This document shows, one piece after another, positions 15,603 through 38,573 of a stretch of DNA of 64,000 bases; position 1 is the stretch's first letter; each line of letters begins with the position of its first letter. A model generated the notes under the pieces. That model was given only the letters and a program-made list of their open reading frames with translations. It was not told where the DNA came from and made no database searches. The stretch comes from Bacteroidota bacterium (GTDB lineage: Bacteria > Bacteroidota > Bacteroidia > Flavobacteriales_F > PHOS-HE28), in NCBI GenBank assembly GCA_018266685.1, contig JAFDZY010000201.1:1632-65631 (forward strand), read 5' to 3'. The translations under genes and the position numbers were made by a program.

Positions 15603-15692
15603 GTGTTCAAATTCACCGCCAAGTTCGCCGCTGCCCGGCCTGGCATGCCCGGGATGTTGATCGTTTTGGCATTTCCCGGGTGCCGCCGTGCG

Positions 15693-16094: not shown

Positions 16095-16096
16095 GT

Positions 16097-16786: not shown

Positions 16787-17420
16787 GCCGCGAAAGTATG
16801 AAGTCCACATCGACGGAAGGACATTGATCGTCGGTGAATTGCCGAAAATGAGTGCCCTGCCGTCCAACTGGCTGGCGCTCCGGGTGGAACGACCGGAAGA
16901 ATTGGGGCGCCTTGCCGACACTTTTGCGGCAAGGCCCGAGCTGGAAGGCGTGCATGCCTTTGGCTCCTCCGTTGATCAGGTCTGGGAATGGTTCAAGGAG
17001 CGCTACACGTTGGTGCATGCCGCCGGTGGTGCGGTCACGGATGCGGAAGGCCGGTTGCTCGCCATCCACCGCTTGGGCCGTTGGGACTTGCCAAAGGGCA
17101 AGGTGGAGCCGGGGGAGGCCATTGCGGATGCGGCGGTGCGTGAAGTGCGCGAGGAGTGCGGATTGAAGCAGTTGCAGATCATCAAGCCGCTGCTGGAAAC
17201 GTGGCATACGTATGAACGCAAGGGCCCAAAGTTGAAATGCACGCACTGGTTCCACATGGCGGGCGATGCCACGGAACAGTTGAAGGCCCAGGCCGAGGAG
17301 GATATTGATGCGGTGCGATGGCTGGATGCCCAAGGGCTGGCAGAGCTTCGCAGCGACACCTATGCGTCGATCTTGCAGGTGCTCAATGCCTGGGAGCAGG
17401 CACGCCACGGTCGGGCCTGA
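16785..17420 (+). CDS. NUDIX hydrolase
   Basis: Nudix box GKVEPGEAIADAAVREVREECGL. Its ATG (16785-16787) overlaps the divergent pyrE ATG (16786-16784) in the palindrome CATG. A later Met start is possible. Confidence 0.8.
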   Translation: MPRKYEVHIDGRTLIVGELPKMSALPSNWLALRVERPEELGRLADTFAARPELEGVHAFGSSVDQVWEWFKERYTLVHAAGGAVTDAEGRLLAIHRLGRWDLPKGKVEPGEAIADAAVREVREECGLKQLQIIKPLLETWHTYERKGPKLKCTHWFHMAGDATEQLKAQAEEDIDAVRWLDAQGLAELRSDTYASILQVLNAWEQARHGRA

Positions 17421-18900
17421 GCTTCCTGTCCTCGGTGTCCTTGGCCCGGATGGCGTGCAGCAGGTTCACCAAGCCTTGGCTGGGCAGCGGGCCCGGTGAG
17501 GCCGTCAGCAGGTTACCGTCCAGCATGAAAAGCACAGGTGCGTTGCGAATGCGCAGTTCATCCAGCAGGTGTTGCTGGTCCGCCGGCACATACCACGGCC
17601 AGTTTAGCTTGGGCTGCGTGCGCAACCAAGTTGCCAACTCCTTGGGTGGGCGGTCCAAGGCAATACCAATGAAATGGACCACGCTTCCGTATTCGGCCTG
17701 CAACTGCGCCAATGCGGCCAGTTCCTGCCCGCCGAATGAGTTTCCGGGCCGTGTCACCATCAGGCAGGTGCGGCCGTTAAAGAGTTTGTCCGAGGGGAGC
17801 ATTTTTCCTGCCGTGTCCAGCAAATCCACGGCGGGGAGTTCCGTCCCAACGCCCATGGCTGTGAGGTCCCACAGCATGTTGGCCGCAATTTTCCGGTGTT
17901 CCGGAAAGGCGGATTTTTCCTTGATCTGGCCAAGGATGGAAAGGATGCCGGCGCGGTCCAGTTCCTTGTTGGCTTCCTGGGCGTAGAGCCCCGTGATCAG
18001 TACCAGCTCACATAAGCGGTCGTCCTTCAGGAAATCGTTCCTTGCCAGCAAGGCTTTCAGGCTGTCCGTTCTTGCGTTCTTTATTTCCCGCTGAAACTGC
18101 ACGGTGTTGGCCCGGAACGGGAACCGTAGCAGGAAGTCTGCGAAGAAGTTGGAGAAGAAGCGCGCATACTCGGGAACGTCGTAGAGCACGGGGCGGTCCT
18201 TCAGGAACCGGTTGAAGAGCACGCGGTCATCCGTGCGTGGCCCCAAGCGCAGCCCGGCAAGGCCGTATTCCACATCGCTTTGGAACCATGGATCATCCAC
18301 GCCCGCATAAAACTTGTGCAGTTTGCGGGCGAAGGTGTCCACGCGGGCTTCGTTCCACTGCGGGGAGAGGAACAGGTCCGGGCTTTCCTTGGCTGAATCC
18401 GGTTCCATCTTGCCCTGGCCGTTCCTTGCCTTGGCCACGGCGGCCATTCCGGAATTGGGGTCCGTGGCGAGGTTTTCGGCCAGAAAGGCATCGAGGCGCA
18501 TGTTGAGGTCGCCTACCAAGGCATTCACATCCATGCGCGAGAGGCCGGGGAAAATGAGGTTCACCTTGGTGGCCCCGCTCATGGTGCGCACCTCCCCGGT
18601 GCTTGGCAAGGGCATGGTGGCGTGGTACTCGCCCGGGCGCAGGTACAGGTCGGCGGAGACTTCGTTGATGCGCAACTGCGCGCGCACGGTGCCATCCACT
18701 TCGGCCGTGAGCACGGCCTGGCCCTTCGCATCCGTGCGCCCTTGCGCAATGCGTTCAAGCCGCAGGGTGAAGGGGTCCATGTAGCGGTACAGCACAACCT
18801 CGCTGCCGGCATAGCCGGGTGCATCCAACGCAATGGTGACGGGCCCGGCGCGCAGGCCGAGCGCGATCGGAAGCAAGGCAATGAATGCTGCTGACCTCAT
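17383..18900 (-). CDS. Secreted protein with a C-terminal thioredoxin-like (TlpA-like) fold lacking the CxxC motif
   Basis: 505 aa with a signal peptide. The C-terminal segment MVTRPGNSFGGQELAALAQLQAEYG...APVLFMLDG has TlpA/AhpC-TSA topology, but NSFGG sits where WCxPC is expected. Confidence 0.7.
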   Translation of the reverse strand: MRSAAFIALLPIALGLRAGPVTIALDAPGYAGSEVVLYRYMDPFTLRLERIAQGRTDAKGQAVLTAEVDGTVRAQLRINEVSADLYLRPGEYHATMPLPSTGEVRTMSGATKVNLIFPGLSRMDVNALVGDLNMRLDAFLAENLATDPNSGMAAVAKARNGQGKMEPDSAKESPDLFLSPQWNEARVDTFARKLHKFYAGVDDPWFQSDVEYGLAGLRLGPRTDDRVLFNRFLKDRPVLYDVPEYARFFSNFFADFLLRFPFRANTVQFQREIKNARTDSLKALLARNDFLKDDRLCELVLITGLYAQEANKELDRAGILSILGQIKEKSAFPEHRKIAANMLWDLTAMGVGTELPAVDLLDTAGKMLPSDKLFNGRTCLMVTRPGNSFGGQELAALAQLQAEYGSVVHFIGIALDRPPKELATWLRTQPKLNWPWYVPADQQHLLDELRIRNAPVLFMLDGNLLTASPGPLPSQGLVNLLHAIRAKDTEDRKLRPDRGVPAPRH

Positions 18901-20809: not shown

Positions 20810-22258
20810 ATGCCTGCCTTTACCGACCGCCTGCTTGCACGCTTGGTGCACGTGCCCACCGAGGGCCAGCAAAAGGCGATCAATGCCTTGGAGCGTTTGC
20901 TGGCAACGGAAAAGCCCCATGCCACCCTGGTGCTCAAGGGCTATGCAGGCACCGGTAAAACCACGTTGGTAGGCGCTTTGGTGCGTGTGCAGGCCGAGGC
21001 CGGCAGGCCGGTGGTGCTGCTGGCTCCCACAGGCCGTGCGGCCAAAGTGCTCAGTGCCTACGCGGGTGCACCGGCAAGCACCATCCATCGGCGCATCTAC
21101 CGCACCGCTTCCGATGGGGACGGTGACTATGCAGGCATGTCCTTGGCGCCGAACCGCGAACGGCACGCGTTGTTCGTGGTGGATGAAGCCAGCATGATCG
21201 GTGCCGGCGGTGGCGGAGCTTTTGAACGGGACTTGCTTTCGGACCTGTTCCAATATGTGTTTTCGGCCCCCGGCAACAAGTTGTTGCTCATCGGCGACCC
21301 TGCCCAGCTGCCCCCCGTGGGCAGCGACCACAGTCCTGCGCTCGACCTCAAGGACCTCTCCGCGCGGGGATTGTTGGCCGGAACCATCGAACTCACGGAT
21401 GTGGTCCGCCAATCCGAGGCTTCCGGCATTTTGGCGAATGCCACCGCCTTGCGGGCGCTGCTCGCGCAACCGGACGGGGAGGATGCGGACGATGCCGGGC
21501 ACGAACCGGTTGTGCCGCAGTTCATCACCGGCTTTAGTGATGTGGTCCGCGTGGACGGCCACGACCTGCAGGATGCGCTGGAAGAGGCATACGCCAGGCA
21601 TGGCGATGACGAAGTGTGCTTGATCTGCAGGAGCAACAAGAGGGCCTATCAGTACAGCCAGCAAGTGCGGGCGCGCATCCATGGTTTTGAGGAGGAACTG
21701 GAGGCAAACGACCGCCTGATGGTGGTGAAGAACAACTATTTCTGGGCAGCGCGCGAGCAGGATGCCGGTTCGTTCGGCTTGATCGCCAACGGGGAACAAG
21801 TCACCGTGCGGCGCGTGCACCATACCGAGCAGAAGTACGGACTGCGGTTCGCGGACCTCACCATTGACTGGTGGGATGGCCAGGCCGATCGCGAGCTGGA
21901 AGTAAAGGTGATCTTGGACGTGCTGGGGGGCGAAGGCCCTGCGCTGCCGGGGCCGCGCATGCGGCAATTGGGGCAGGATGTGCTGGCCAACATCGTTGCG
22001 CGCACCAAAGCCGAGCGGTTCCGTGAGTTCAAGCGTGATCCCTATGTGAACGCGCTGCAAGTGAAGTATGCATACGCCGTAACCTGCCACAAGGCACAAG
22101 GCGGCCAGTGGAAAAGCGTGTTCGTGGACCAGGGCTACGTAACGGAGGAGATGATCGACCGGGAATACCTGCGCTGGCTGTACACCGCAGTTACCCGTGC
22201 CAGTGAAAAGCTTTACTTGCTCAACTTCCACCCGCGGTTCTACGGGGAGGGCGATTGA
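20810..22258 (+). CDS. RecD-like SF1 DNA helicase (AAA_30/UvrD_C-type)
   Basis: Walker A GYAGTGKTT, Walker B/motif II FVVDEASM, and a C-terminal YAVTCHKAQGGQW (SF1 motif VI-like). Confidence 0.85.
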   Translation: MPAFTDRLLARLVHVPTEGQQKAINALERLLATEKPHATLVLKGYAGTGKTTLVGALVRVQAEAGRPVVLLAPTGRAAKVLSAYAGAPASTIHRRIYRTASDGDGDYAGMSLAPNRERHALFVVDEASMIGAGGGGAFERDLLSDLFQYVFSAPGNKLLLIGDPAQLPPVGSDHSPALDLKDLSARGLLAGTIELTDVVRQSEASGILANATALRALLAQPDGEDADDAGHEPVVPQFITGFSDVVRVDGHDLQDALEEAYARHGDDEVCLICRSNKRAYQYSQQVRARIHGFEEELEANDRLMVVKNNYFWAAREQDAGSFGLIANGEQVTVRRVHHTEQKYGLRFADLTIDWWDGQADRELEVKVILDVLGGEGPALPGPRMRQLGQDVLANIVARTKAERFREFKRDPYVNALQVKYAYAVTCHKAQGGQWKSVFVDQGYVTEEMIDREYLRWLYTAVTRASEKLYLLNFHPRFYGEGD

Positions 22259-23013
22259 TCGCCGGCGGCAGCATGGAAGAACTGCAATTTCTTGATGGCA
22301 TCCGTGCTGGCCAGGCTGATCAGGTGGTCAGGTCCGGATGCTAAGGTGCCTACGTGGTATGCAGGCGCCGCCATGCGGACAAAATCCGGATGGGAGATCG
22401 CCATGGTGTTCGCAGGACTGCCCACTTCCAAGCTGTGCAGATCATCCATCAGGCCAACACCGCAGGCTTTCAGAACCGCTTCCTTGCGTGTCCATAGTTC
22501 CAGGAAGCGCCGTTTGCCATCATCCGCCCTTCGGATGCTGTCAACTTCCTTGCCGGTAAAGTAATGATCGGCCACGCGCAAATGGTCGGTATGGCGGTTC
22601 ATCGTTTCTATGTCCACCCCGATCGGCTTGTCCGCGATGGCCACCAGCACGGCATCCTTGGTGTCGCTCAGGTTAAAGTGAAAGGGGTGGTCTTTTAGAA
22701 AGGGTTTCCCGAATTCGCCTCGTTGAAGGATCAATGAAGCGGGGGGGGCACCGAGGTATTTTCCAAGCAGGGACCGCAACAATCCATGTCCCAAAATGAA
22801 TCGCTCGCGGTCATGTTCATGGAGAAAGCGTGCCGCCCTGGCTTGTTCTTCCCCATCCAAAAGCAACCGGTAATGGGCGGCGCGGTGGGCCAAGGAGAGC
22901 AGTGTGGCATACCAAAGGTGCGTTTCCCCTTTTTGCAGCATGAACGAAGGCTTTGTTGACTGGCCTACGTCCAAGGTGGTGCAGTACACCCGCAATGTCC
23001 TCATGTTGGTCAT
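22240..23013 (-). CDS. Sfp-type 4'-phosphopantetheinyl transferase
   Basis: GKPFL...FNLSDTKD, IGVDIE and WTRKEAVLKACG are PPTase motifs. It sits 10 nt downstream of the NRPS gene. An alternative start is Met25 (22941). Confidence 0.85.
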   Translation of the reverse strand: MTNMRTLRVYCTTLDVGQSTKPSFMLQKGETHLWYATLLSLAHRAAHYRLLLDGEEQARAARFLHEHDRERFILGHGLLRSLLGKYLGAPPASLILQRGEFGKPFLKDHPFHFNLSDTKDAVLVAIADKPIGVDIETMNRHTDHLRVADHYFTGKEVDSIRRADDGKRRFLELWTRKEAVLKACGVGLMDDLHSLEVGSPANTMAISHPDFVRMAAPAYHVGTLASGPDHLISLASTDAIKKLQFFHAAAGDQSPSP

Positions 23014-23023
23014 GGCCTCCGGC

Positions 23024-26000
23024 CTATCCCGCCGTTGCCTTGGCGGTGGCCTGCGCTACTACAAGGCATTGTCCCAGTTCATCCGCCAATTGCCTTACGA
23101 ACGGCTCCTTTACAATGGAATAGTGGTCCCCGTCGGTGTACCTGATCTCCACGCCCTCCTTGGCCAACTTGCCCCAGCCCATATCCTGTGTGCCGGGGCT
23201 GGTTTTGGTGCGGATCAGGGTCAAGCGGCCCGGAAACACTCCCGGCCTGTACTGCTCAATGGAAGTGCCGTACGTATCGATGATGTAGAAGTGGCGCAAC
23301 TTGCCCGGCAAGGGTTTTTTGCGGTCGTGGTAAAACTTCACCAGTTTCCGCATGATCACGCGCTTCAACGGTTCATGGATCTTCTGTTCGATCCTGATCA
23401 TCTCCACGTTTTCCTCCGGTGAATAGGTGTCGAACAAGGCGACCAGCGGTACGGATTCACCCTGAGCAACCAGTTGGCACGCCATTTCGAACGCCACGAT
23501 GCCGCCGAAGGAGTAGCCGCCGAGGAAGTAGGGTCCGCGGGGCCGTACTTGGCGGAGCTCCCGGATGTAGTGCTCCGCAATTCCTTTCGTGGTTTTGTAG
23601 GTTACCGGCAGGCCATCTTCCCCTTGGTGGAAGAAGCCGTAGAATGGCTGGCCTTCGCCCAGGTAACGCGGAATGAAGACGTTTGCTTCATCCCCGTGCA
23701 CGCAGAAGAATGGCGCCCGTTCTCCCTTGGGCTGTATGGCGGAAAGGTTCTTCAAGTTCAGTCCGGTGGCGGGGCCATGGTTCATCATGGCCGCCAACTT
23801 GGCAATGGTGGGCGATTGGAACAGCGCCTTTACGGGTAGCTTTTGGCCCAGTTCGCGTTCCACATGTGCAAGCATCTGGATGCCGATCAAGGATTGCCCG
23901 CCGATCTCGAAGAAATTGTCGTGGATGCTTACCTGTTCCAAATTGAGGAGCTTGCACCAGATCCGGGCCAGCGCGGTCTCCATTTCATTGCGCGGGGAAA
24001 CATGCTTGGTGAGCATGTGCGCTTGGCTGCGCGGCGGCTCGGGCAGGCGCTTTTTGTCCGGTTTGCCGCTAGAGTTCAAAGGCATGGATCGGATCACCAC
24101 AATGTCCGAGGGCCGCATGTGCTCCGGCAAGGCTTGGGCAAGGTGCTCTTCCACAGCCTGGCGGAAGGCCGCATTGGTGCCGGGTGCGGAAGTTTCGTCA
24201 TCCGCCACCACAGCCGGATCGGCCGGTACGGTATAGAGCACCAGGCGCTTTTCGCCGTTGCTGGAGGGTAAGGCCACCACCACCTTGTCCTTTACGGTTG
24301 CCAGGTTGTTCAGGGCTGCCTCCACTTCGCCAAGTTCCACGCGGAAGCCGCGCACCTTTACTTGGTCGTCTGTGCGTCCGGTAAATTCGAGTTCGCCTTC
24401 CTCGTTCCAAAGCACCATGTCCCCGGTCCGGTACATCATGGCACCGGGGATTTTGCTGAACGGATCGGGCAGGAAGTGCTTCGCCGTTTGCTCCGGGCGG
24501 TTCAGGTAGCCGAGGGCCACGCCGGAACCGCCGATGTACAGTTCGCCTGTCTGGCCAACGCGCACGGGGCGCCCCTTGGCATCCAGCACGTGCAGCAGGG
24601 TGTTGCCGATGGGCTTTCCTATGGGGATGGAGCCGCCTGCCCAGCTTTCATCCACCACGGGATAGGCCGTGGCCAGGATGGTGGCCTCCGTTGGGCCGTA
24701 TACGTTGATCACCACGCCGGGGCCCAGTGTCCGCAGCGCTTTGCGTACGTGCGGAACGGATATGGCATCCCCGCCGGTGATGAAGTAGCGCAGCCGTTTC
24801 AGGTCTTCCAGGTGCTCGTCCACCAGCAGTTTGAAATAGCCGCTCGCGGAGAACAGGCAGTTCACCCCTTGGTTGCGGATGGCGTTCACAAAGTCTGAAA
24901 GTGCCGGCTTTTCGGATGCGGGGAGCACCATGGTGCCGCCGGTGAGCAAGGTGCCCATCACCGTGAGCTGGCATGCATCAAAGGAGATGGAAAGGTGGAA
25001 GAGCGTGGTGAGCCCGGGCCCGAATTCCACGAAGGGCTGGTCCTTCACGATGCGCATCACCCCCCTGTGCGGTACCACGGTTCCCTTGGGTTCGCCCGTG
25101 GAGCCGGAAGTGTAGATGATGTATGCGGGGTCATCCGTGGTGCCCGCGAACCCGGGCCTGCGCACGATGCTGCCCGTGCGTTCGCCGTCAATGGCCACCA
25201 GCGTTCCGCGGAAATCGCCGAACATGTTGGACAGGCTCTTTGTGGTGAGCAGGATGCTTGCCCCGGAATCGGAAAGCAGATAGTCCAGCCGGGCCTTGGG
25301 GTAGCTGTGGTCAATGGGCAGGAATGCCCCGCCCGCCCGCACAACGGCCAGCAGCGCGGTGATCAGGTCAAAACTCGGGGCGGCGCACACGGCCACCGCC
25401 ATGCCTGGGCGCACGCCGCGATCGATCAGTTCCGCGGCCAATGCGTCCACCTGGTCGCGCAGTTCGCCGTAGGTGAGCGAGGCGTTTCCTTGCACCAAAG
25501 CCTTGTGGTCGGGATGCATCTTCGCAATGCGGTCGAACGCTGCGGGGATGGTCAACTCTTGCGGGGTTGCCGATGCGGTCCCGGTCCACTCCCTGTGGGG
25601 CAGTTCGGCCAGTTGGCGGCCCTCATGAAGCAGGTCATCAATGATGGTGGAAGGATCGGCGATGATGTGCCTGGCCATTTGCTCCAGTTCACGCATCCAG
25701 CCGCGTACCGTGTCCTCCTTGAAGAGGTCTGTATTGAAGGACCATTCCAAGGTAAGCCGGCCCTTGGAGCTGCTGGCGTTCATGGCCAATTCAAACTGCT
25801 CATACGTGCGTGGCTCACTGCGCAGGTGGTGCACAAGGCCCGGGAAGTTCACCCGGTCGTCCATCTCCATGTCCAGGTTGAAGATCACCGGCACAAGGGG
25901 CACGCGCCCGGGGTCGCGCGGAATGTTCAGCTCATGGAGGAGCGTGCTGAAGGTGAACCGCTGGTGGTCGAATGCATCGAGCAATGATTTCTTGCGCTGT

Positions 26001-27001
26001 TGCAAGTACGTGCTGAACGGCAGGTCTTCGTCGATCACCGAGCGCAGTGGGAGCAGGGCTACGCAGTGCCCCACAAGTTCCTCCATGCCCATGTCGCTTT
26101 GCCCGGCGGCCGGCATGCCCACCACGATGTCCCTTTGGCCGGTGATGCGCGCCAGCAGTACTTCATACACGGAGAGCAGGGTGGTGACGAAGCTGCTGCC
26201 GAAACGGGTTCCCAGCTTTTTCAGGCCCTCCGTGATCGCCGGGTCCAGGGCAATGTCAATGCGCTTTGCGTTCCATGTCTTTTCCAGTGGCCGGCCGTGG
26301 TCCACGGGCAGGTCGAGCACAGGGATCGGTGGCGTGAACAACTCTTTCCAGTAGGCTTTCACCTCCTTGTTCGCGTCAGATCGGTAAAAGGCGTTCAATT
26401 CCTGCGCATAAAGGCTGGCGGAAACGGCTTCCGGCAATCCGGCGTGCTCCAAGCTGCCGCCAGCGGCGTATGCCTTGCTCAGGTCGCCGATCAGGATGCT
26501 CATGGACCAGCCATCACAAGCAATGTGGTGGGCCACAATGCGCAATACATTTTTTGCGCTGCCCAGTCTGAAAAGGATGAACCGGATCAATGGCCCGTGG
26601 GCAAGGTCGAACGACGTGGCCATCAAGTCCATGCCGATCTCCTCCATCTGTTTGTTCCGTGCTTCTTCCTGAAGGGATGCCAAGTCGTGGATTTCAAGTT
26701 CCACGGGCATTTCCTGCTGCACCACCATGCGGGTGCCGGTGCTGTCGAACACCGCACGCAGGCTTTCGTGGCGTTGCACCACGGAGGCAATTGAAGCGCG
26801 CAGAATGCCGGGGTCAAGCGGGCCGTCCAGGTCAAGGCTGATGGATTCGTTGTAGGAGCATGAGGCCTCTTCGCCCACTTGGGATGCGGCCCACACCTCC
26901 CGTTGCGGCTCTGTGGTGGGTGCAGTCAACTGAATAGGCGTACCGGCGAACGGGTCATGTTCCACCGCCACCAATCGGGTCTCCTTGAAAAATTGTTCCA
27001 T
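23024..27001 (-). CDS. Non-ribosomal peptide synthetase, C-A-T-TE termination module
   Basis: 1325 aa. C domain: HHIACDG at 26510-26530. A domain: AYIIYTSGSTGEPKG at 25082-25126, YRTGD, GRTDDQVKVRGFRVELGEVE and NSSGKPDKK. T domain: FFEIGGQS, Ser1037 at 23891-23893. TE domain: GGYSFGG, Ser1164 at 23510-23512, and GDHYS. Confidence 0.95.
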   Translation of the reverse strand: MEQFFKETRLVAVEHDPFAGTPIQLTAPTTEPQREVWAASQVGEEASCSYNESISLDLDGPLDPGILRASIASVVQRHESLRAVFDSTGTRMVVQQEMPVELEIHDLASLQEEARNKQMEEIGMDLMATSFDLAHGPLIRFILFRLGSAKNVLRIVAHHIACDGWSMSILIGDLSKAYAAGGSLEHAGLPEAVSASLYAQELNAFYRSDANKEVKAYWKELFTPPIPVLDLPVDHGRPLEKTWNAKRIDIALDPAITEGLKKLGTRFGSSFVTTLLSVYEVLLARITGQRDIVVGMPAAGQSDMGMEELVGHCVALLPLRSVIDEDLPFSTYLQQRKKSLLDAFDHQRFTFSTLLHELNIPRDPGRVPLVPVIFNLDMEMDDRVNFPGLVHHLRSEPRTYEQFELAMNASSSKGRLTLEWSFNTDLFKEDTVRGWMRELEQMARHIIADPSTIIDDLLHEGRQLAELPHREWTGTASATPQELTIPAAFDRIAKMHPDHKALVQGNASLTYGELRDQVDALAAELIDRGVRPGMAVAVCAAPSFDLITALLAVVRAGGAFLPIDHSYPKARLDYLLSDSGASILLTTKSLSNMFGDFRGTLVAIDGERTGSIVRRPGFAGTTDDPAYIIYTSGSTGEPKGTVVPHRGVMRIVKDQPFVEFGPGLTTLFHLSISFDACQLTVMGTLLTGGTMVLPASEKPALSDFVNAIRNQGVNCLFSASGYFKLLVDEHLEDLKRLRYFITGGDAISVPHVRKALRTLGPGVVINVYGPTEATILATAYPVVDESWAGGSIPIGKPIGNTLLHVLDAKGRPVRVGQTGELYIGGSGVALGYLNRPEQTAKHFLPDPFSKIPGAMMYRTGDMVLWNEEGELEFTGRTDDQVKVRGFRVELGEVEAALNNLATVKDKVVVALPSSNGEKRLVLYTVPADPAVVADDETSAPGTNAAFRQAVEEHLAQALPEHMRPSDIVVIRSMPLNSSGKPDKKRLPEPPRSQAHMLTKHVSPRNEMETALARIWCKLLNLEQVSIHDNFFEIGGQSLIGIQMLAHVERELGQKLPVKALFQSPTIAKLAAMMNHGPATGLNLKNLSAIQPKGERAPFFCVHGDEANVFIPRYLGEGQPFYGFFHQGEDGLPVTYKTTKGIAEHYIRELRQVRPRGPYFLGGYSFGGIVAFEMACQLVAQGESVPLVALFDTYSPEENVEMIRIEQKIHEPLKRVIMRKLVKFYHDRKKPLPGKLRHFYIIDTYGTSIEQYRPGVFPGRLTLIRTKTSPGTQDMGWGKLAKEGVEIRYTDGDHYSIVKEPFVRQLADELGQCLVVAQATAKATAG

Positions 27002-27011
27002 GCTCGCTTCT

Positions 27012-30000
27012 TCAAAGTTCTTCTCCTTCCAACATCAGGTACTTGCCGCTGCGGGCCGGGTCCGGAACGAACCAGGCGGGATCGCCGTTGGGCATGCGGC
27101 CCATGCGTGCGCCGGGAACGGGTGCTTCCGTTGCGCGGATCACTCTTTCGCTCAGTTTTTGCGCATGCCCGTTCAACGAGTTGTTCACCACCTCGATCGG
27201 ATACGTGCGCTTCGGCATGAAGCCGGATGCGCGCAGTTCCTTGCATGTTTTCTCCAGCGTATGCAGGATGAACTCCACGTCCGCCAGGGTGTGTGCCGTG
27301 GTGAGGAAGTGCGGGAAGTCCAGCACGTGCACACCGTGGTACCGCATCAGCATGAAGAAGAGCTCGGTGTAGTGGATGCTCTCGTCGTACTTGGTCTTGA
27401 ACGCGCTGCCGAAGTTCACCCAGCGGTAGGGAAGCATGTATTGGTCGAAGAGCGCGTTTGCGCGTTCCACCATGCCCTCGGTGAGGCCGTTGAGGCGCTT
27501 CTGCAAGGTGGGGCCATCCTGCTTCATGTGCAGCAGCGAGGCTTTCATTGCCGCAAGCGTGAGCGGGTGGCGCACAAAGGTGCCGGCAAAGTAGGTGACG
27601 CCCGCTTCGGGCACGCTGCCATCGCCGAAGCGCCAGTCGCCGCCATCGAGCGCGTCCATCCACGGACGGCTGCCGATCATGGCGCCGATGGGCATGCCGC
27701 CGCCGATCACCTTGCCGTAGGTGCCGATGTCGGCTTGGATGCCGAAGAGGCCCTGCGCGCCATTTTGGTGCATGCGGAAGCCTGTGATCACTTCGTCGAA
27801 GATCAAGGCCGTGCCATGTTCCTTGGTGATCCTGCGCACTTCGCGTAAAAAATCCACCGGGCGGAATTCCATCCGGCGGCTCTGCACCGGTTCCACCAGC
27901 ACGGCGGCGGCCTCGTGGCAGCGCTGCCTGATGATCTCCAAGCTTTCTGGCGTGCCGTAGTCCAGCACCAGCATGTTGTGCACGGCCTCGGGCATGATGC
28001 CGGGCGCACCGGGGTAGCTCTTTTTGCTCTTGCTGCCGCGGATGATCACCTCGTCGTTGATGCCGTGGTAGCTGCCGCTGAAGGAGATGATCAGGCTGCG
28101 GCCCGTTACCGTGCGCGCCATGCGCATGGCACCCAGCACAGCTTCGCTGCCGGTGTTGCACACCGCTGCGCGTTCGGCACCGGTGAGCTCGCAGAGCAGG
28201 TTGCTCACTTCCGCCGCCAGCGGCGACATGGGGCCGATGCTCGCATCCTGGTCGGCTTGTTCCTGCACGGCCTTGCGGATGAAGTCGGGCATGTAGCCGA
28301 ACATCGAGCTCCCGAAGCCACTGAGGATGTCCACGTATTCATTGCCGTCGATGTCCCAGAGGCGCGCGCCCCGGCTGCGGTCCACCACCACTTGGTAGGT
28401 GAGTTCCTTGGTCTGCGGCTTGAAGCCGGTGACCACGCGCGGGTCGGCCATGTGCTCCCGGTTGGCCTGCGTGAAGGCCTTGCTCTTGGCGGTCTTCGCC
28501 GTGTAGCGCTGCACGAAGTCCTCGAACCAGGCGCGCTGTTGCGGGGTGAAGTCGTCTTCTTTTTCCTTGCTGATGCGGGCCTGGGCACCGAAGACCTTCT
28601 TCAGTTCGGGGGCATCTTCGATGGCGGAAACAGTTGTTGGTTGTTGGTTGTCCGTTGTCCGGGCACTGACAACCGACAACTGTGAACTGACAACTGAACC
28701 CACCCCATTCGCTAACAAGTGCTCCGCCAATTTCTCCAGGTTTGGCAGTTCCTCGTTCAGTTGGCGGAAACTGATCTTCACGCCGAACTTCTTGCTGAGC
28801 GAGGTGGCGACCTGCGTAAGGAAGAGCGAATCGAGGCCCATCTCCAGGAAGGTCTCCTCGTTGCTCGCTTCAGCGAGTTCCAGGCCGGAGCTTTCTTCCA
28901 GCAGGTGTTTGATTTGTGCGATCAGTTGGTCCTTGGGTGCAAGGCTGGCATCTGCCAGCCCAGTGGACGGGGTGGACACGGTGGCTTCACCGTGTCCACC
29001 CTGTCCACCTACTGCGGCTTGCAGAGCCGCAGGCTCCACCCAGTGTCGTACCCTTTCAAAAGCGTATGTCGGCAGGCTGATCCGCCTGCGCTCCTCACGC
29101 TCGTAGAATTTCTCCCAGTCGATCAGCACGCCACTCTGCCACAGGCCGCCCACGGCTTTCAGCAGCTGCGCCAGCTCGTTGCCGTTGCCTGCGTGATCGC
29201 TGAGCGAAGCCACGGCTGCTTGCTTCTTGCTGTCCGTGCTTTGCTGGCGGGCCAAGGTGGTGGCCGTGGTGCGCGGGCCCACTTCCAGCATCACCCTGTT
29301 TGCGTCGCTCCACGCGAACTTCACGGCTTGCGCAAAGCGCACCGTGGCGCGGATGTGATCGCTCCAGTATTTGGGTGAAGTGGCCTCGTCGTCCTTCAGC
29401 CATTCAGCGGTCACCGTGCTCACGATTGGGATGCGCGGTGCGTTCAGCTTCACGCTTTCGACAACCTGCTTGTACGGCGCCACCATGGCGTCCATCATCG
29501 GGCTGTGGAAAGCGTGGCTGGTCACGAGCAGCTTGCAGGTGATGCCGTCATTCTCCAATTCAGCGTGCAGCTTGGCAATGGCCTCGTGCGGACCGCTGGC
29601 CACGCACAATTGCGGGCCGTTGTTGGCCGCGATGCTGCAACCGGCGGGCAGGCGCTTCGCCACGTCCTCCTCCGCCGCGCGCACGCTGAGCATGCTGCCG
29701 CCGGGCAGTTCCTGCATCATGCGGCCGCGGTTGGCAACGAGCTTAATTGCATCTTCCAGCGAGAACACACCGGCCAGGCATGCAGCGGCGAACTCACCGA
29801 TGCTGTGGCCCATCATCGCGTCGGGCGTGATGCCCCAGTGCATCCACAGCTTCGCGAGGCTGTAGTGCATTGTGAAGAGAGAAGCCTGCGTGTAGATGGT
29901 CTGCTTCAGTTGCTCGGCGGCCTTTTCTTCTTCACCGGCTTTCGGGAAGATGATGGCCTTGAGATCGGTGCTGAACTCCTTACTGAAGAGCGCGCAGCAG

Positions 30001-33000
30001 TGATCGAAATGCTGCTTGAAGACCGGCTCACTTTCGCTGAGGTCGCGGCCCATGTTCACGTATTGTGAACCTTGGCCGGGGAACATGAACACCACGCCCG
30101 GTGCGGCCTCGTGCAACTCGCGTGTGCCGATCAGTTGTGCGTCCTTGTTCGTGATCGCGTCAATCACTTCGCTGTGGCTTCCGCCTACGATCAAGCGGCG
30201 GTGCTTGAAGGAACGGCGTCCCACCTGCAGCGTGTATGCGGCGTCGGCAAGGGAAGCATCGGGGTGCGCTGCCAGCCACTGGCGGAAATTCTCCGTCATG
30301 GCATCCAAGCTGGTCTTGCTCTTTGCGCTAAGGAAGAACACCTGCTTGCTGCGCGATGCGCCCGAAGCCGCCATGACCGGCGGTTCCGCCATGATCACGT
30401 GCGCGTTGGTACCGCCCACGCCAAAGCTGCTCACCCCCGCGATGCGCGGCCTGCTGGTGCGCGGCCAGGCGATGGTGTCCTGGGCTACTTTGAAGGGCGA
30501 GTTCGCGAAGTCGATCGCGGGGTTCGGCTTTTCGAAACCGATGCTCGCGGGGATCTGCTCTTGCTGAAGCGCCAGCGCGGTCTTGATCACGCCCGCCGCA
30601 CCCGCCGCAGCCGTAAGGTGGCCGATGTTGCTCTTGATCGATCCGATCGCGCAGAATTGTTGCGTCGACCCATGGGTCGACGGTACATCTGCGCCCGATC
30701 GGAACGCCAGCGTCAGCGCCTCCACTTCGATTGGATCTCCCAATGGCGTAGCTGTGCCGTGCGCTTCCACATACGTGATCTGATCCGGTGTAACACTGGC
30801 ATCAGCCTGGGCCATGGCGATCACCTCCGCTTGGCCGCGCACGCTGGGCGCGGTGAAGCTGGCCTTGTCGCTGCCGTCGTTGTTCAGCGCAGCGCCCTTG
30901 ATGGTGGCGTAGATGTGGTCCTTGTCGCGGATCGCATCATCCAGGCGCTTGAGCACGATGATGCCCACACCATCGCTGAAGCTGGTGCCCTTGCCTTCGG
31001 CATCGAAGGTGCGCGTGCTGCCGTCGGGGCTGTACATGCCGCCTTCGTTGTACACGATGCCGCTGTTGATCGGCGCGGTGATCGCGATGCCGCCGGCCAG
31101 CGCCATGTCGCACTCGCCGCCGCGCAGGGCATGGAAGGCCTGCGCGATGGCCACCAGCGAGGTGCTGCATGCCGTGTTCATGCTGATCGCCGGACCGCGC
31201 AGGTCGAACTCGAACGCGAGTCGCGTGGCGATGTAGTCCTTCTCGTTGGCCGTCATCACCTGGAAATCGCCGACCTGCTCGATCAGCTCGGGATGGCCGA
31301 TGACGTTGCGCGTGTAGTAGGTGTTGTTGCCCATGCCGGCATACACGCCGATGAGCCCTGCGAACTGTGCGGGGTCGTACGCGGCATCCTCCAGCGCGGC
31401 CCAGGCCGTTTCCAGGAACACGCGTTGCTGCGGGTCCATCAGCGCGGCTACCTTGGGGTTCACGCCGAAGAAGGCCGCGTCGAACTTGTCGGCATCGGTG
31501 ATCACCCCGCGCGCCTTCACGTAGTCCGGGTCGTTGCGCAGTTCGGCCGGTATGCTCGGGTCGATCTCGTCAGCGCTCCATTTGCTGATGCTGTTCTTCC
31601 TGGCCAGCAGGTTCTGCCACAGCTCTTCCAGGTTCGCCGCACCGGGGAAACGGCCGCTCATGCCGATGATGGCAATGTCACCCTTCGTGCCGCCGGACTC
31701 CCGTCCGGCTTTTCGTGCTCTCGCCATCTCGGCAGGAGACACAGCCGCTGCATCACCCTCCAAGAATGCCGCGCACGCCCTGATCGTGGGATGCTGGTAC
31801 AGTTTCACGATCGGCAGTTTCAGGCCATGGCCTTCCAATCCCGCCACGCATTGGATGCTCAGCAGCGAGTTGCCACCGAGGTCGAAGAAGTTGTCGTCGA
31901 TGCCCACGCGGTCGATGCCGAGCAGGTCGGCCCACACGTTGGCGAGCTTCTTCTGCACGGCGCTTTGCGGTGCGGCGAACACAACGTCCAATTCCGGGCG
32001 TTTTACATCCGGTGCGGGCAAGGCTTTGCGATCGATCTTGCCGCTGGGCGTGCGGGGCAGTTCCTTCACCGCCACGAAGGCCGAGGGCACCATGTAGTCA
32101 GGCAGGAGGGAAGCGAGGTGCTTGCGCAGCTCGTTCACGCTCACGTCCTGCTTCGCCACATAGTAGCCTACCAGCCGCTTCAACCCCGGACGGTCTTCCC
32201 GCACATTGGCCACGGCTTGTTCAATGGAAGCATGCTTTTCAAGCGCCACTTCCACTTCGCCGAGCTCAATGCGGTAGCCGCGCACCTTCACCTGGCCATC
32301 GATGCGGCCCTTGTAGTCGATCTCGCCGTTGGGTAGTTCGGCAGCACGGTCGCCGGTCTTGTACATACGGCCACCGGGGATGAACGGATCCGCGAGGAAG
32401 CGTTCCGCCGTAAGGTCATCGCGACTGATGTAGCCTTTCGCCACGCACGCGCCGCCGAGGTACAATTCTCCTTCCTCCCCCTTCCTCACCGGCTTCATCT
32501 GCTCATCGAGCACGTAGAGCTTCACGTTGTCAATGGCCTTGCCGATGTTGGGCAGTGCGGGCCAGGTGGAGGGGTCGCCTTTCAGTTCGAGCTCGCTCAC
32601 TACGTGGCCTTCGGTGGGGCCGTACTGGTTGCAGAAGCGCACACCGGGCAGTTGCTGGAAGAGGTTGATGATCGCCGGGGTGATCTTCAGTTGCTCGCCG
32701 CTGGTGAAGACCTCCTTCAGCGAGGAAGGCACTTCGCCGGTGCGCTCCACCGCTTCGGCGAGGTATTGCAGTGCCACGAAGGGCACAATGATGCGGTTGA
32801 TCTGCTCGGCGATGATCTTGCGCAGCAGTTGGGTGCTGTTCAAACGGTCCTCATCGGTGATCAGCACCAGCGTACCGCCTTGGGCGAAGGTGGTGAAGAT
32901 CTCCTGGAAGCTCACGTCGAAGCTGATGGGCGCGAACTGCAGGGTGCAATCGCCTTCTTTCAATACCGAAGTACGCAGCTGCCATTGGATCAAGTTCGTC

Positions 33001-33527
33001 AGCGGCCCGTGGGGCATGGCCACGCCTTTCGGGCGGCCGGTGCTTCCGCTGGTGAAGAGGACGTAGAGCAGATCAGCGGCCGTGGCAGGGCAAGGGCCGT
33101 CGAACATGGGGCCGTTATTGAGGTCGATGTCCTCGATCAGCAGCACCTTCGCCTTGGTGCCTTTGAACAAATGCTGGTGCGCCTTGCTGGTGATCACCAC
33201 CGGAGGCTTGGCATCTTCCAGCATGCCGGCGATGCGTTCGGCAGGGTAGGTGGGGTCGATGGGCACGTATGCTGCACCGGCCTGCACAATGCCGAGGACG
33301 GCGATGATGAGTTCGGGGGATCGGTCGAGGCAGAGGGCGACGGTTTTGCTGCGGTTTGCCCCTTGGGGATCGATCCGGGCAGCCAATCGGGCCGATTTTT
33401 CGGCTAACTGGGCGTAGCTGAAAACAGCGGTTCCGGCGATCAGCGCAAGGGCATCTGGCCGCTTGGTGGCAGTGTCCTCAAACAGCTTGTGGATGTTGGA
33501 GGGCGCTGCAATTCTGTTATTTGACAT
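27012..33527 (-). CDS. Hybrid NRPS-PKS: A-T-KS-AT-ACP-aminotransferase (class III PLP)
   Basis: 2171 aa. A domain aa 10-505 (LYVLFTSGSTGRPKG at 33024-33068). T domain GGNS, Ser554. KS domain aa 615-1047 (TACSTS Cys787 at 31167-31169; EAHGT; NIGH). AT domain aa 1144-1440 (GHSIG Ser1242 at 29802-29804; HAFH). ACP GLDSL, Ser1567. AMT domain aa ~1690-2100 (SGSYHG, FDEVITGFR, YGKVIGGG Lys1939 at 27711-27713). No KR, DH, ER or MT domain. Confidence 0.95.
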   Translation of the reverse strand: MSNNRIAAPSNIHKLFEDTATKRPDALALIAGTAVFSYAQLAEKSARLAARIDPQGANRSKTVALCLDRSPELIIAVLGIVQAGAAYVPIDPTYPAERIAGMLEDAKPPVVITSKAHQHLFKGTKAKVLLIEDIDLNNGPMFDGPCPATAADLLYVLFTSGSTGRPKGVAMPHGPLTNLIQWQLRTSVLKEGDCTLQFAPISFDVSFQEIFTTFAQGGTLVLITDEDRLNSTQLLRKIIAEQINRIIVPFVALQYLAEAVERTGEVPSSLKEVFTSGEQLKITPAIINLFQQLPGVRFCNQYGPTEGHVVSELELKGDPSTWPALPNIGKAIDNVKLYVLDEQMKPVRKGEEGELYLGGACVAKGYISRDDLTAERFLADPFIPGGRMYKTGDRAAELPNGEIDYKGRIDGQVKVRGYRIELGEVEVALEKHASIEQAVANVREDRPGLKRLVGYYVAKQDVSVNELRKHLASLLPDYMVPSAFVAVKELPRTPSGKIDRKALPAPDVKRPELDVVFAAPQSAVQKKLANVWADLLGIDRVGIDDNFFDLGGNSLLSIQCVAGLEGHGLKLPIVKLYQHPTIRACAAFLEGDAAAVSPAEMARARKAGRESGGTKGDIAIIGMSGRFPGAANLEELWQNLLARKNSISKWSADEIDPSIPAELRNDPDYVKARGVITDADKFDAAFFGVNPKVAALMDPQQRVFLETAWAALEDAAYDPAQFAGLIGVYAGMGNNTYYTRNVIGHPELIEQVGDFQVMTANEKDYIATRLAFEFDLRGPAISMNTACSTSLVAIAQAFHALRGGECDMALAGGIAITAPINSGIVYNEGGMYSPDGSTRTFDAEGKGTSFSDGVGIIVLKRLDDAIRDKDHIYATIKGAALNNDGSDKASFTAPSVRGQAEVIAMAQADASVTPDQITYVEAHGTATPLGDPIEVEALTLAFRSGADVPSTHGSTQQFCAIGSIKSNIGHLTAAAGAAGVIKTALALQQEQIPASIGFEKPNPAIDFANSPFKVAQDTIAWPRTSRPRIAGVSSFGVGGTNAHVIMAEPPVMAASGASRSKQVFFLSAKSKTSLDAMTENFRQWLAAHPDASLADAAYTLQVGRRSFKHRRLIVGGSHSEVIDAITNKDAQLIGTRELHEAAPGVVFMFPGQGSQYVNMGRDLSESEPVFKQHFDHCCALFSKEFSTDLKAIIFPKAGEEEKAAEQLKQTIYTQASLFTMHYSLAKLWMHWGITPDAMMGHSIGEFAAACLAGVFSLEDAIKLVANRGRMMQELPGGSMLSVRAAEEDVAKRLPAGCSIAANNGPQLCVASGPHEAIAKLHAELENDGITCKLLVTSHAFHSPMMDAMVAPYKQVVESVKLNAPRIPIVSTVTAEWLKDDEATSPKYWSDHIRATVRFAQAVKFAWSDANRVMLEVGPRTTATTLARQQSTDSKKQAAVASLSDHAGNGNELAQLLKAVGGLWQSGVLIDWEKFYEREERRRISLPTYAFERVRHWVEPAALQAAVGGQGGHGEATVSTPSTGLADASLAPKDQLIAQIKHLLEESSGLELAEASNEETFLEMGLDSLFLTQVATSLSKKFGVKISFRQLNEELPNLEKLAEHLLANGVGSVVSSQLSVVSARTTDNQQPTTVSAIEDAPELKKVFGAQARISKEKEDDFTPQQRAWFEDFVQRYTAKTAKSKAFTQANREHMADPRVVTGFKPQTKELTYQVVVDRSRGARLWDIDGNEYVDILSGFGSSMFGYMPDFIRKAVQEQADQDASIGPMSPLAAEVSNLLCELTGAERAAVCNTGSEAVLGAMRMARTVTGRSLIISFSGSYHGINDEVIIRGSKSKKSYPGAPGIMPEAVHNMLVLDYGTPESLEIIRQRCHEAAAVLVEPVQSRRMEFRPVDFLREVRRITKEHGTALIFDEVITGFRMHQNGAQGLFGIQADIGTYGKVIGGGMPIGAMIGSRPWMDALDGGDWRFGDGSVPEAGVTYFAGTFVRHPLTLAAMKASLLHMKQDGPTLQKRLNGLTEGMVERANALFDQYMLPYRWVNFGSAFKTKYDESIHYTELFFMLMRYHGVHVLDFPHFLTTAHTLADVEFILHTLEKTCKELRASGFMPKRTYPIEVVNNSLNGHAQKLSERVIRATEAPVPGARMGRMPNGDPAWFVPDPARSGKYLMLEGEEL

Positions 33528-33784: not shown

Positions 33785-36700
33785 TTGTACCCCCATTTTC
33801 TGATGCGCGGCCGTGATCTGCTCCTTGTGGGCCTTGTGTTTGGGTGCTTGTCCATTTCGGAACCCGGAAAGGCCCAAGCTTATGAGGCCAGTGTGCGTGC
33901 TTCGGTACAGGTGCAAACCTCGCCGCCCCGGATCACCTTGAATTGGCAGGGATTGTACAACGTTACGGGCTACCAGATCTGGCGCAAATTGAAGGGGGCC
34001 ACCAGCTGGGGCAATCCGGTGGCCAATTTGGACGCCAACGCGCTCTCTTGGACGGATGGCAATGTTCAGCCGCAGGTTTCCTACGAGTACAAGGTCCGCC
34101 GCACCACGGTGAACGTCGGTGATGGGTATTCCTACATCAACGCAGGCATTGAAGTGCCCATGGTGGAAGGCAGGGGCAAGGTGATCCTGCTCGTGGACGA
34201 TTATTTCTCATCGGCTCTTTCCAGCCAATTGGACCAGGTGAAACAGGACCTGGAAGGAGATGGCTGGACCGTGCTTCGCCATGATGTGAGCAGGAATGCG
34301 AGCGTGCCCAGCATCAAGAACATTGTGGTGAACGACTACAATGCCGATCCCGCGAACACAAAGATGGTGTTCATTCTTGGCCACGTTCCAGTGCCGTATT
34401 CCGGGAACTTGGCCCCGGACGGGCACTGGGAGCACCAGGGAGCGTGGAGCGCGGATACTTACTACGCCGATGTGGACGGCACTTGGACGGATAATTCGGT
34501 CAACGTCACGTACGCAGTTGATCCACGCAACCACAATGTGCCCGGCGATGGCAAATTCGACCAGAGCAACATTCCGAGTGCGGTGGAATTGGCGGTCGGA
34601 CGGGTGGACTTCTACAATCTCCCCGTTTTTCCGCAGAGCGAAACGGTCCTGATGGCCACCTACCTTACAAAGCTGCACAACTGGAAGGTGAGGAACTTCA
34701 CCGCAGTGGCCCGCGGCTTGGTGGACGACAATTTTGTGGGGCAGGGACCCGGATTTGCCTCCATCGGATATCGCGGTTTCAGTCCGTTGGTAGGCCAACA
34801 GAACGTTACAGACCAGGACTATTTCCCCACGCTTGTAAACCAGAGCTACTTGTGGAGCTACGGCTGTGGAGGCGGCTACTGGGATTCCGCCAATGGCGTG
34901 GGCAACTCCAATGACTTTGCCACGAAGAACGCCAAGAGTGTTTTTACCGCACTGTTCGGCAGCTCCTTCGGTGATTTTGACTGCCAGAACGATTTCATGC
35001 GGTCTGCCTTGGGGAGCGGCACCATCCTCACCAGCTTCTGGGGCGGAATACCCAACTGGTTTTTCCACCACATGGGCATGGGGGAAACCATCGGCTATGC
35101 GGTAAAGCTCACGGAGAACAACGTCAATGGACTGTACACGCCGGCCAATGATGGTGCAGGACAGGTGCACATCGCGCTGATGGGCGATCCCACCCTACGG
35201 ATGACCATGGTGGGACCACCTTCAAATGTTACCGGCAATGTCCAAGGCAACAACATCAATCTCTCCTGGACCGGCAGTTTGGACAATGTGGCCGGTTATC
35301 ATGTTTACCGCTACGTTCCCGCTACCCAATCCTGGCTTCGGGTTACCAACAGTGCCGTTTCAGGGACCTCGTTCACGGATGTCGTTTCCGGGGCAGGGGG
35401 GACCATCCGTTACATGGTGCGGGCATTGAAACTGGTTTCCACCGCGAGCGGCACCTACTACGACCTGAGCATCGGGGCCAAGGGCCAAGCGGTAGCGGGT
35501 GGTTCCGCAGTGGACTGCCTAGGGGTTCCGGGAGGCACTGCACTGGCGGGAAGCCCATGCAACGACGGAGATGCATGCACGGTAAACGATGCCTGGGATG
35601 CCTCCTGCGAATGCACCGGAACATTCCAGGACCAGGATGGAGACGGCATTTGCAATGCGCAGGACAACTGCCCCGGCGTTCCCGGGCAGATCGGGTCCGC
35701 ATGCAATGACGGGAGTGCCTGCACGATCAATGATGTGCTCAACGCGAATTGCCAGTGCACGGGCACGTTCCAGGACAATGACGGCGATGGCATCTGCAAT
35801 GCCTTGGACAACTGCCCCAATACACCGGGTTCCATCGGCTCTTCCTGTGATGACGGAGATCCCTGCACCACCGGTGACATGGTGAACGCCAACTGCCAAT
35901 GCACGGGCACGTTCCAGGACACGGATGCGGATGGCATCTGCAATGCACAGGATGGATGCCCCACCATTCCCGGAACAGTGGGAACACCCTGCGATGACGG
36001 GAGCGATTGCACTGCCAACGACGTGTTGGACAATAATTGCCAGTGCGCTGGCTCACCGCTTCCGGATGCAGATGGCGATGGCCTGTGTGATGCACACGAC
36101 AACTGCCCGAACGTGACAGGGGAGGTGGGCTGGGATTGTGATGATGGAGATCCCTGCACCGTGGAAGATGAACTGGATGCCAACTGTGTTTGCATTGGCA
36201 CTCCGGCCGGCGACCAGGACAACGACGGTATTTGTGATGCCACGGACGATTGCCCGACCATCCCCGGCCAAATTGGATCTTCCTGTGATGATGGAAGTGA
36301 ATGCACCAATAACGACGTATTGGACAGTAATTGCCAGTGCACTGGTACGCCGCTTCCGGATGCAGATGGCGATGGCTTGTGCGATGCCCAAGACAACTGC
36401 CCGAACGTGACCGGGGAGGTGGGTTGGGATTGTGATGATGGAGATCCCTGCACGGTGGAGGATGAGCTGGATGCCAACTGTGTTTGCGTTGGCACTCCGG
36501 CCGGCGACCAGGACAACGACGGTATTTGTGATGCCACCGACGATTGTCCGACGGTGCCCGGCCAAGTTGGATCCTCCTGCGATGACGGAAGCGATTGCAC
36601 GCTGAACGATGTGCTTAACGCAGCATGCCAATGCACGGGTACCTTCCAAGATACGGACAACGACGGTACCTGCGATGCGCAGGACGGCTGCCCGAACGAT

Positions 36701-38401: not shown

Positions 38402-38573
38402 ACCGCTGGCGGAGCGGAATGCCTGGTTGGACGGGCTGATGAAGTGATTTGTCTTATTGATGAACCATGGACGTAACCCGTGCGTTCGGGGTTGCGCTAT
38501 AAGGTCTCCTGCTCCTTTGTTTGCCGGTCCTCCCACCAAGGTCGGCGAATGGTCAGGCCAGACCAAGACCCAG

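Follow-up and report, generated by a model that had tools for sequence, protein, structure and literature searches.

In MycA and ItuA, the first subunits of the Bacillus mycosubtilin and iturin synthetases, a ketosynthase (KS), an acyltransferase (AT), an acyl carrier protein (ACP) and an aminotransferase (AMT) form a block that is followed by a condensation (C), an adenylation (A) and a carrier (T) domain. The starter of MycA is a fatty acid that an acyl ligase brings in; the protein carries its C-A-T module fused in cis and belongs to a line that continues to a lipoheptapeptide. Here we describe a cassette of approximately 11.3 kb that has a comparable block in a different setting. It lies in a 64,000-nucleotide stretch of DNA from a Bacteroidota bacterium of the GTDB lineage PHOS-HE28, an uncultured member of the Flavobacteriales from wastewater (GenBank assembly GCA_018266685.1, contig JAFDZY010000201.1, positions 1,632 to 65,631 of the forward strand), which we refer to as the window. 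The cassette encodes a hybrid of nonribosomal peptide synthetase (NRPS) and polyketide synthase (PKS) with the domain order A-T-KS-AT-ACP-AMT (P1), an NRPS module that ends in a thioesterase (TE) and has the order C-A-T-TE (P2), and its own 4'-phosphopantetheinyl transferase (PPTase, P3). We consider it likely that these three proteins form a complete, self-priming assembly line that joins a proline-type starter, an aminated C2 unit and an aliphatic residue, and lets the product go through the TE.

The cassette shares with MycA and ItuA the KS-AT-ACP-AMT block and the C-A-T module that comes after it, but its starter is loaded by an amino-acid A domain with a proline-type pocket, the line is split after the AMT, a single residue is added, a TE closes the line, and there is no further NRPS gene in the locus. 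Neither a fatty-acyl-AMP ligase as loader nor a cis fusion of AMT with C-A-T, the hallmarks of an iturin-family subunit A, was found. Judged by its domain makeup, the cassette resembles the first subunit of the iturin family in the way it works but falls outside that family, since it lacks the fatty-acyl ligase, the cis fusion and the long peptide. Another relative in logic is the fungal swainsonine synthetase SwnK (A-T-KS-AT-KR-ACP-R, in which KR is a ketoreductase and R stands for reductive release), which like P1 combines an imino acid and one malonate on one hybrid protein; by its description it differs in having a KR instead of an AMT, reductive release, no second NRPS module and a fungal host. 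Detoxinine (in detoxins and rimosamides) and dolaproine (in dolastatin 10) are formed by extension of the proline carboxyl group by a C2 unit, as would happen on P1. By description these units carry a 3-hydroxy group made by a KR and an acylated ring nitrogen, whereas in the unit predicted for the cassette position 3 is aminated and the ring NH is left free. The conversion of an α-amino ketone into a vicinal diamine by a class-III aminotransferase is also known from biotin synthesis, in which BioF and BioA lead over 7-keto-8-aminopelargonate (KAPA) to 7,8-diaminopelargonate (DAPA). BioF and BioA are free-standing enzymes that act on free acids without carrier proteins, unlike the cassette; the likeness is conceptual only. 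McyE and NdaF of microcystin and nodularin synthesis, and modules of the microginin type, have an in-line class-III AMT after KS-AT-ACP and make a β-amino acid. By their description, they belong to extended polyketide lines that also contain reducing and methylating domains, are not primed by an amino acid, and do not form a minimal line of two proteins as the cassette does. The architecture string of such PKS-AMT modules is given in PMC9783101.

The enzymology and the chemistry are thus known, while a search of literature outside the subscription journals gave no description of the cassette or its product, that is, of the amino-acid-primed form on two proteins. PMC10681181, in the part of it that was available, mentions PHOS-HE28 solely in a table of cluster counts per bin. 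The cassette is real, intact and an orphan.

P1 (27012..33527, 2171 aa), P2 (23024..27001, 1325 aa) and P3 (22240..23013, 257 aa) are encoded by three adjacent open reading frames (ORFs) on the minus strand, separated by gaps of 10 nt each (27002-27011 and 23014-23023). Pfam reported AMP-binding, PP-binding, ketoacyl-synt N and C, Acyl_transf_1, a second PP-binding and Aminotran_3 on P1, and Condensation, AMP-binding, PP-binding and Thioesterase on P2. P3 is of the Sfp/HetI type, with the Pfam families ACPS and AASDHPPT_N. No KR, dehydratase, enoylreductase or methyltransferase family was reported by Pfam in the three proteins, and the window genes read by Pfam included no transporter, regulator or tailoring gene in the operon. 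Among the NCBIfam models no curated equivalog passed its cut-off for the cassette proteins: P3 matched the HetI model below its cut-off, and the best small-family match of the AT of P1 was FabD, also below the cut-off.

The residues needed for catalysis could be located in every domain, all of which lie, like their genes, on the minus strand. In P1, the A domain (residues 16-497, 32037..33482) has the motifs FDVS (Asp235) and PSGKIDRK (Lys517), and is followed by the carrier T1 (residues 527-589, 31761..31949, GGNSLLS with Ser554), the KS (residues 617-998, 30534..31679, with the triad Cys787/His923/His970), the AT (residues 1146-1440, 29208..30092, GHSIGE with Ser1242 and HAFH at 1338-1341), the ACP in the second PP-binding stretch (about residues 1540-1610, 28698..28910, GLDSL with Ser1567) and the AMT (residues 1653-2105, 27213..28571, TYGKVIGGG with Lys1939). 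P2 consists of the C domain (residues 25-456, 25634..26929, HHIACDG at 158-164), the A domain (residues 489-980, 24062..25537), the carrier T2 (residues 1010-1072, 23786..23974, GGQSL with Ser1037) and the TE (about residues 1090-1320, 23042..23734, GYSFGG with Ser1164). The catalytic motifs are kept across 42 P1 and 31 P2 sequences, including those of the window. Colinear domain order, intact catalytic residues and a PPTase at hand are what is expected of a type I modular hybrid NRPS-PKS. An earlier note, made from the letters of this DNA, had claimed three co-directional genes with 10-nt gaps, the architecture A-T-KS-AT-ACP-AMT, C-A-T-TE and PPTase, intact carrier serines, KS Cys/His/His, AT GHSIG, C-domain HHxxxDG and TE GxSxG, and the absence of reducing and methylating domains as well as of tailoring, transporter and regulator genes. 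ORF coordinates, Pfam and the translations agree with it on each of these points, and the KS and AMT residues, of which the note had allowed that some might be missing, are intact and conserved in all 42 P1 sequences.

The best solved relative of the P1 AMT is the AMT domain of MycA. The P1 region matched the MycA AMT structures 6kfu and 6kfm with an E value of 4e-124 over 453 residues, including the lysine motif that binds pyridoxal phosphate (PLP), and its best match to a glutamate-1-semialdehyde (GSA) aminomutase (3bs8) reached 2e-49. The domain, Aminotran_3 in Pfam, is thus a class-III PLP aminotransferase that is fused after the ACP and nearer to the MycA AMT than to the GSA aminomutases, and TYGKVIGGG is kept in 42 of 42 sequences. 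By these alignments, the P1 AMT is a close relative of the β-keto-thioester aminotransferase of MycA. The latter transfers an amine from glutamine to an ACP-bound β-ketothioester, as stated in PMC3870968.

To read substrates, the pocket codes of the A domains were anchored on core motifs in GrsA numbering, and the register was checked against GrsB1 and TycB1, to which HMMER aligned the P1 pocket region without gaps. The code of the P1 loader (A1), DVQIFSQVVK, is invariant in 42 of 42 P1 sequences. When its pocket region was compared with the PDB, the two top matches were the proline-activating GrsB1 (8p5o, 4e-33) and TycB1 (9bfd_B, 3e-32), after which the third-best match dropped to 5e-27. Codes of the form DVQFIAHV[VI]K or DVQYIAHV[VA]K, which we take to be the canonical proline codes, occur in 11 of 26 more distant proteins of P1 architecture. 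A further 11 have intermediate codes (DVQFIAQVVK, DVQFMAQVVK, DVQFISQVVK and others) in which the DVQ start and the V[VI]K end are kept, and the remaining four deviate (DAMIIAMVCK or DAMNIAMVCK in three, DLTFMGHIGK in one). The window code itself agrees with the DVQxxAHVVK proline type at 6 of 10 positions. Because the nearest solved pockets are proline-activating and relatives carry proline or intermediate codes, A1 probably belongs to the proline-activating type and would load L-proline or a close analogue.

The A domain of P2 (A2) has the code DALFIGVILK, with aliphatic residues at every specificity position, and its closest solved pocket found as a single stretch is that of the leucine-activating SrfA-C (E 5e-34). 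We take A2 to be of a predicted Leu/Ile/Val type, with no finer call. The C domain upstream has the TycC PCP-C didomain 2jgp as its best solved match (E 5e-53) and is, by this match, of the ordinary elongation type.

Taken together, the domains suggest the following pathway. The substrates, the sequence of the steps, the docking of the two proteins, the way of release and the biological role in it are predictions. P3 would place phosphopantetheine arms on the three carrier domains, after which the A domain of P1 would load L-proline or a close proline analogue onto T1 and the AT would charge the ACP with malonyl. Decarboxylative condensation by the KS would give 3-oxo-3-(pyrrolidin-2-yl)propanoyl-S-ACP, whose 3-keto group would be turned into an amine by the in-line AMT in the manner of MycA, yielding a 3,4-diamino acyl unit in which the 4-amino group is the ring nitrogen. 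P2, which would probably dock on P1 through the C-terminal tail of P1 and a DPF motif near its own N-terminus, would load an amino acid with an aliphatic side chain (of the Leu, Ile or Val type) and would form the amide through its C domain. Finally, the TE would free a small diamino pseudo-dipeptide, either by hydrolysis or as a lactam through attack of either amine. This pathway keeps the small-product logic of the earlier note, an amino acid plus an aminated C2 unit plus a second amino acid, with which the domain evidence agrees, the product itself being predicted. Its call of an amino acid rather than a fatty acid as starter fits Asp235 (in FDVS), Lys517 (in SGKIDRK) and the proline-type pocket; its malonyl-type AT is in line with the Pfam acyltransferase and with the HAFH motif, presumably a malonyl-CoA marker; and its β-keto-to-amine step accords with the MycA-like AMT match, the amination being expected from the alignment. 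The second amino acid that it had postulated matches the C-A-T module of P2 and can now be narrowed to one of a predicted aliphatic type, and release by a TE is what the domain order predicts, with an intact GxSxG at the end of P2.

At the C-terminus of P1 (about residues 2135-2166, 27030..27125, minus strand) we found a tail with the consensus PPVPGARLGR..G.PAWFVPDP.RPGKYL, with invariant A, G, G, W and G columns in an alignment of 31 tails that covers both family members and more remote relatives. Such a tail ends 69 of 149 representative AMT-bearing proteins. Its candidate partner is the motif VAVEHDPFAG at the N-terminus of P2 (residues 11-20, 26942..26971, minus strand), which corresponds to a head motif V[DE][FY][DN]PF with P17 and F18 invariant in 26 of 26 P2 heads. 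In eight longer proteins in which AMT and C domain are fused, tail and head stand side by side in two (P0126, P0164), neither is present in five, and one has a degenerate tail and no head. The P1 tail and the DPF head of P2 look like a candidate docking pair, possibly an undescribed one. The literature search, again outside the subscription journals, gave no description of an AMT-tail docking pair, and in the accessible part of the 2021 docking-domain review PMC9113145 the term 'aminotransferase' is absent.

The distribution of the cassette was determined by homology search with the aminotransferase region of P1 (residues 1640-2171) as query. More than 120 relative clusters with 80-92% identity and the same domain set were found, and where organism labels were given, all were metagenome-assembled genomes (MAGs) of Flavobacteriales or Bacteroidetes. 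In contigs that represent one genome per species, 127 stretches encode a relative of this region. A family survey took as its centre the genome (G001) that carries the closest locus, L066, and covered its GTDB family of uncultured Flavobacteriales with 131 species genomes. The P1 AMT region was present at E <= 1e-100 in 116 of these, and polynucleotide phosphorylase (PNPase), used as a control, in 121. As the genomes are incomplete MAGs, these two counts indicate that the cassette is near-universal in the family. The order T9SS giant (a large cargo protein of the type IX secretion system, T9SS), P1, P2, P3 and a convergent RecD was found in 35 of 40 loci of at least 20 kb, and most of the 35 continue to DUF3822, RsmD and CoaD where the locus reaches far enough. 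Four of the other five loci are without a P3 or RecD match, and in the fifth, L049, there is a weak P2 match alone. L049 has a P1 homologue with 76% identity on a 2.5-Mb contig labelled as a Gemmatimonadaceae MAG, with the usual neighbours unmatched, which points either to a wrong label on the bin or to a gene that has moved out of the family.

At the level of the class, 401 evenly sampled genomes yielded 33 matches to the P1 AMT region, of which 13 are in the family, 17 are others with 53-60% identity (in frames of 2119-2299 aa), and three are weak. Sixteen of the 17 distant loci were read, the remaining one, from the unpublished genome G308, being counted only. P1, P2 and PPTase are adjacent in 12 of these 16 distant Bacteroidia loci, with the PPTase as third gene in all 12 trios, a P2 of about 1340 aa (1736 aa in one) and flanks of unrelated housekeeping genes. 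Because of these flanks, the absence of tailoring genes that the earlier note had reported for the operon extends from the window to its relatives. In the other four (L084, L086, L088 and L089; genomes G340, G396, G201 and G239) P1 stands alone between housekeeping genes, but these genomes have a P2-like C-A-T-TE gene elsewhere, in one case on the same contig about 31 kb away. The adjacency in 12 of 16 loci, the P2-like gene in the other four and the conserved tail and head motifs (31 tails, 26 heads) together argue for a partnership of P1 and P2. Conservation and co-occurrence, like domain order, intact catalytic residues and domain family membership, are directly established.

Within the family, evolution is much faster in P2 than in P1. 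Counted per residue, P1 is 82% identical to that of the window, evenly so across its domains, whereas the figure is 47% for P2 and 42% for P3. The median pairwise identities of P1 (83%) and P2 (57%) are uncorrelated (r = -0.04). In distant family members, the P1 AMT region is 80-84% identical, compared with 73-78% for PNPase. The proportion of nonsynonymous differences (pN) in P1 was 0.07-0.17 and that of synonymous differences (pS) 0.34-0.59. Against the L066 and L007 genomes, pN was 0.065 and 0.115 for P1 and 0.028 and 0.158 for PNPase, and pS was 0.34 and 0.49 for P1 and 0.31 and 0.44 for PNPase. P1 is thus constrained like a housekeeping gene and about as conserved as PNPase, and a pN that is far below pS, as in PNPase, indicates that its function is under selection. 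Gene flow for the whole of P1 was at one point considered since its pS is below that of the flanking genes (~0.6), but was dropped as the pS of PNPase is equally low (0.31-0.44). The low pS of P1 is normal for a strongly constrained gene with high G+C at third codon positions (GC3 0.81 and 0.84).

P2, by comparison, is variable in substrate and in length. In 18 of 31 P2 sequences the A2 code is DALWLGGTFK and in one it is DILQLGMIWK, which we assume to be codes for valine and glycine, respectively; several others are aliphatic variants, and the window pocket differs from the usual Val-type code of the family. The 12 distant P2 codes comprise eight of the Gly type, one each of the Thr, Asn and Val types, and one without an assignment. 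One family member (L072) has a P2 with two modules, C-A-T-C-A-T-TE (2363 aa, 11631-18722, plus strand of its locus), and its product should, from this domain order, carry two added residues. Pairwise identities of P1 and of P2 do not track the identities of RecD, the gene next to the cassette (for 20 taxa, Mantel r 0.14 with p 0.17 for P1 and r 0.17 with p 0.13 for P2), and the trees indicate that much of this is due to short internal branches. According to the trees, P2 is largely vertical in the clade of the window, with the window and L010 as exceptions: in the tree of P2, L010 is the sole partner of the window, on a stem that is long (0.73), and seven of the other members of the window's RecD clade form a clade of their own. 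Compared with L066 in windows of 60 residues, identity is mostly 90-98% along P1, 71-80% in the middle of P3, and 25-61% throughout P2. We read this as a divergent P2 allele in the window, in which the whole gene, and with it the predicted specificity, was either replaced or changed very rapidly.

Several points weigh against the assembly line as proposed. No product, transcript or protein of the cassette has been observed. Three public runs labelled as RNA contain contigs on the stretch, with exact matches of 157-342 bases in P1 and P2, but these contigs are short, a flag marks two of the three runs as probably DNA, and carry-over of DNA is possible; the contigs are no evidence on transcription either way. 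The pocket codes were obtained by anchoring and alignment, not with a trained predictor, and the substrates assigned to the codes are predictions. A1 differs from the canonical proline code at 4 of 10 positions (I278, F299, S301 and Q322). The mode of release, hydrolysis or cyclisation, cannot be read from the TE sequence, and a prolyl β-keto or β-amino thioester with a free NH could release itself as a five-membered lactam, bypassing P2.

Regarding release, two free amines would be in reach of the terminal thioester, judging from the domain logic, and the TE might then cyclise the chain, either through the 3-amino group to a seven-membered 1,4-diazepane-2,5-dione or through the ring nitrogen to an eight-membered lactam. 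The earlier note had likewise suggested a lactam. The solved relatives of the TE are distant (best E 3e-14), its sequence does not discriminate cyclisation from hydrolysis, and no natural product is known to have such a diazepanedione or eight-membered ring; we regard cyclisation as no more than a tentative possibility. Regarding the starter, the four deviating A1 positions leave room for a proline analogue or another substrate, and the same line could begin with pipecolate, hydroxy- or methyl-proline, or azetidine carboxylate. That DVQIFSQVVK is invariant in all 42 sequences and yet four positions away from DVQFIAHVVK, two of which become polar (S301 and Q322), speaks for such a starter; the intermediate codes in relatives of the same architecture bridge the two, however, and both nearest solved pockets activate proline, and we therefore consider a starter other than proline unlikely.

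The contrast between P1 and P2 allows a more speculative picture, in which P1 would make an invariant head, its vicinal diamine consisting of the ring nitrogen and the 3-amino group, and P2 an exchangeable tail of a metabolite that is indispensable to these wastewater and freshwater Flavobacteriales, a metal binder or a species-specific signal and not an antibiotic made now and then, with the two proteins joined by an undescribed docking pair. If this were true, what P2 adds would differ from one species to the next (Val, Gly, Thr, Asn or aliphatic, with one or two modules), and an ethylenediamine-type donor set with amide and carboxylate would fit metal binding. We regard this picture as a whole as doubtful. 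A product that is not a free metabolite at all but a building block moved onto a lipid, a glycan or another polymer of the cell surface appears improbable: near-universality in the family and housekeeping-like constraint would suit it, but the line ends in a TE, and neither in the family nor in distant relatives does the trio have a conserved transferase, glycosyltransferase or lipid gene at its side. Release from P1 itself, by attack of the pyrrolidine nitrogen on the ACP thioester to give 1-aminopyrrolizidin-3-one and with a separate or later role for P2, is very improbable, since, although closure of a five-membered lactam is established as chemically easy and P1 and P2 lie apart in 4 of 16 distant genomes, those four still have a P2-like gene elsewhere, P2 starts with an ordinary elongation-type C domain, and the tail motif of P1 is conserved together with the head motif of P2.

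If the two-protein line works as proposed, a vicinal-diamine pseudo-dipeptide of a kind not found described is to be expected from it. The system is very small, brings its own PPTase and needs no tailoring genes, and is therefore a cheap target for heterologous expression. A near-universal distribution, syntenic where the flanks are readable, is unusual for an NRPS-PKS, and this prevalence together with the PNPase-like constraint suggests that the product matters in the ordinary life of these bacteria. A frozen P1 next to an exchangeable P2, with a pair of motifs at their junction, would amount to natural module swapping and could inform engineering. Carriers are common in metagenomes from activated sludge, wastewater, wetland, aquaculture and soil: at least 95% of the sampled words of the window stretch were present in 17 DNA runs of 7 studies, and the six studies that remain when the possible source is set aside come from these environments. 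Cultured carriers of a P1 homologue exist, namely Echinicola arenosa CAU 1574 and an Algoriphagus sp., which makes the questions about the cassette testable.

On its 3' side the cassette is flanked in the window by the convergent gene for a RecD-like helicase (20810-22258, plus strand), followed by DUF3822, an RsmD-like methyltransferase and a CoaD-like cytidylyltransferase. On the 5' side, two divergently transcribed genes (33785-38401 and 38457-42545, plus strand) encode giant T9SS cargo proteins of 1538 and 1362 aa, in which Pfam found thrombospondin type-3 repeats and a T9SS C-terminal sorting domain; such giant proteins occupy the same site in most family loci. None of these neighbours on either side is biosynthetic. 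A 505-aa ORF at 17383-18900 (minus strand), with no Pfam family, recurs with ~45% identity at the same position in 36 of 80 loci. At its gathering threshold, Rfam gave no matches in the window. A stand-alone AMP-binding enzyme (1-1476, minus strand) is cut by the beginning of the window, at a distance of 21 kb from the cassette. Towards the other end (58001-64000), G+C is 0.44 at 58-60 kb and 0.52-0.54 up to the window end, compared with ~0.60 elsewhere. This region, which may be an acquired island, contains a Pol-beta-type nucleotidyltransferase (58257-59831), two ORFs without a Pfam match, and a fusion of NUDIX and T4-type RNA ligase (62755-63915).

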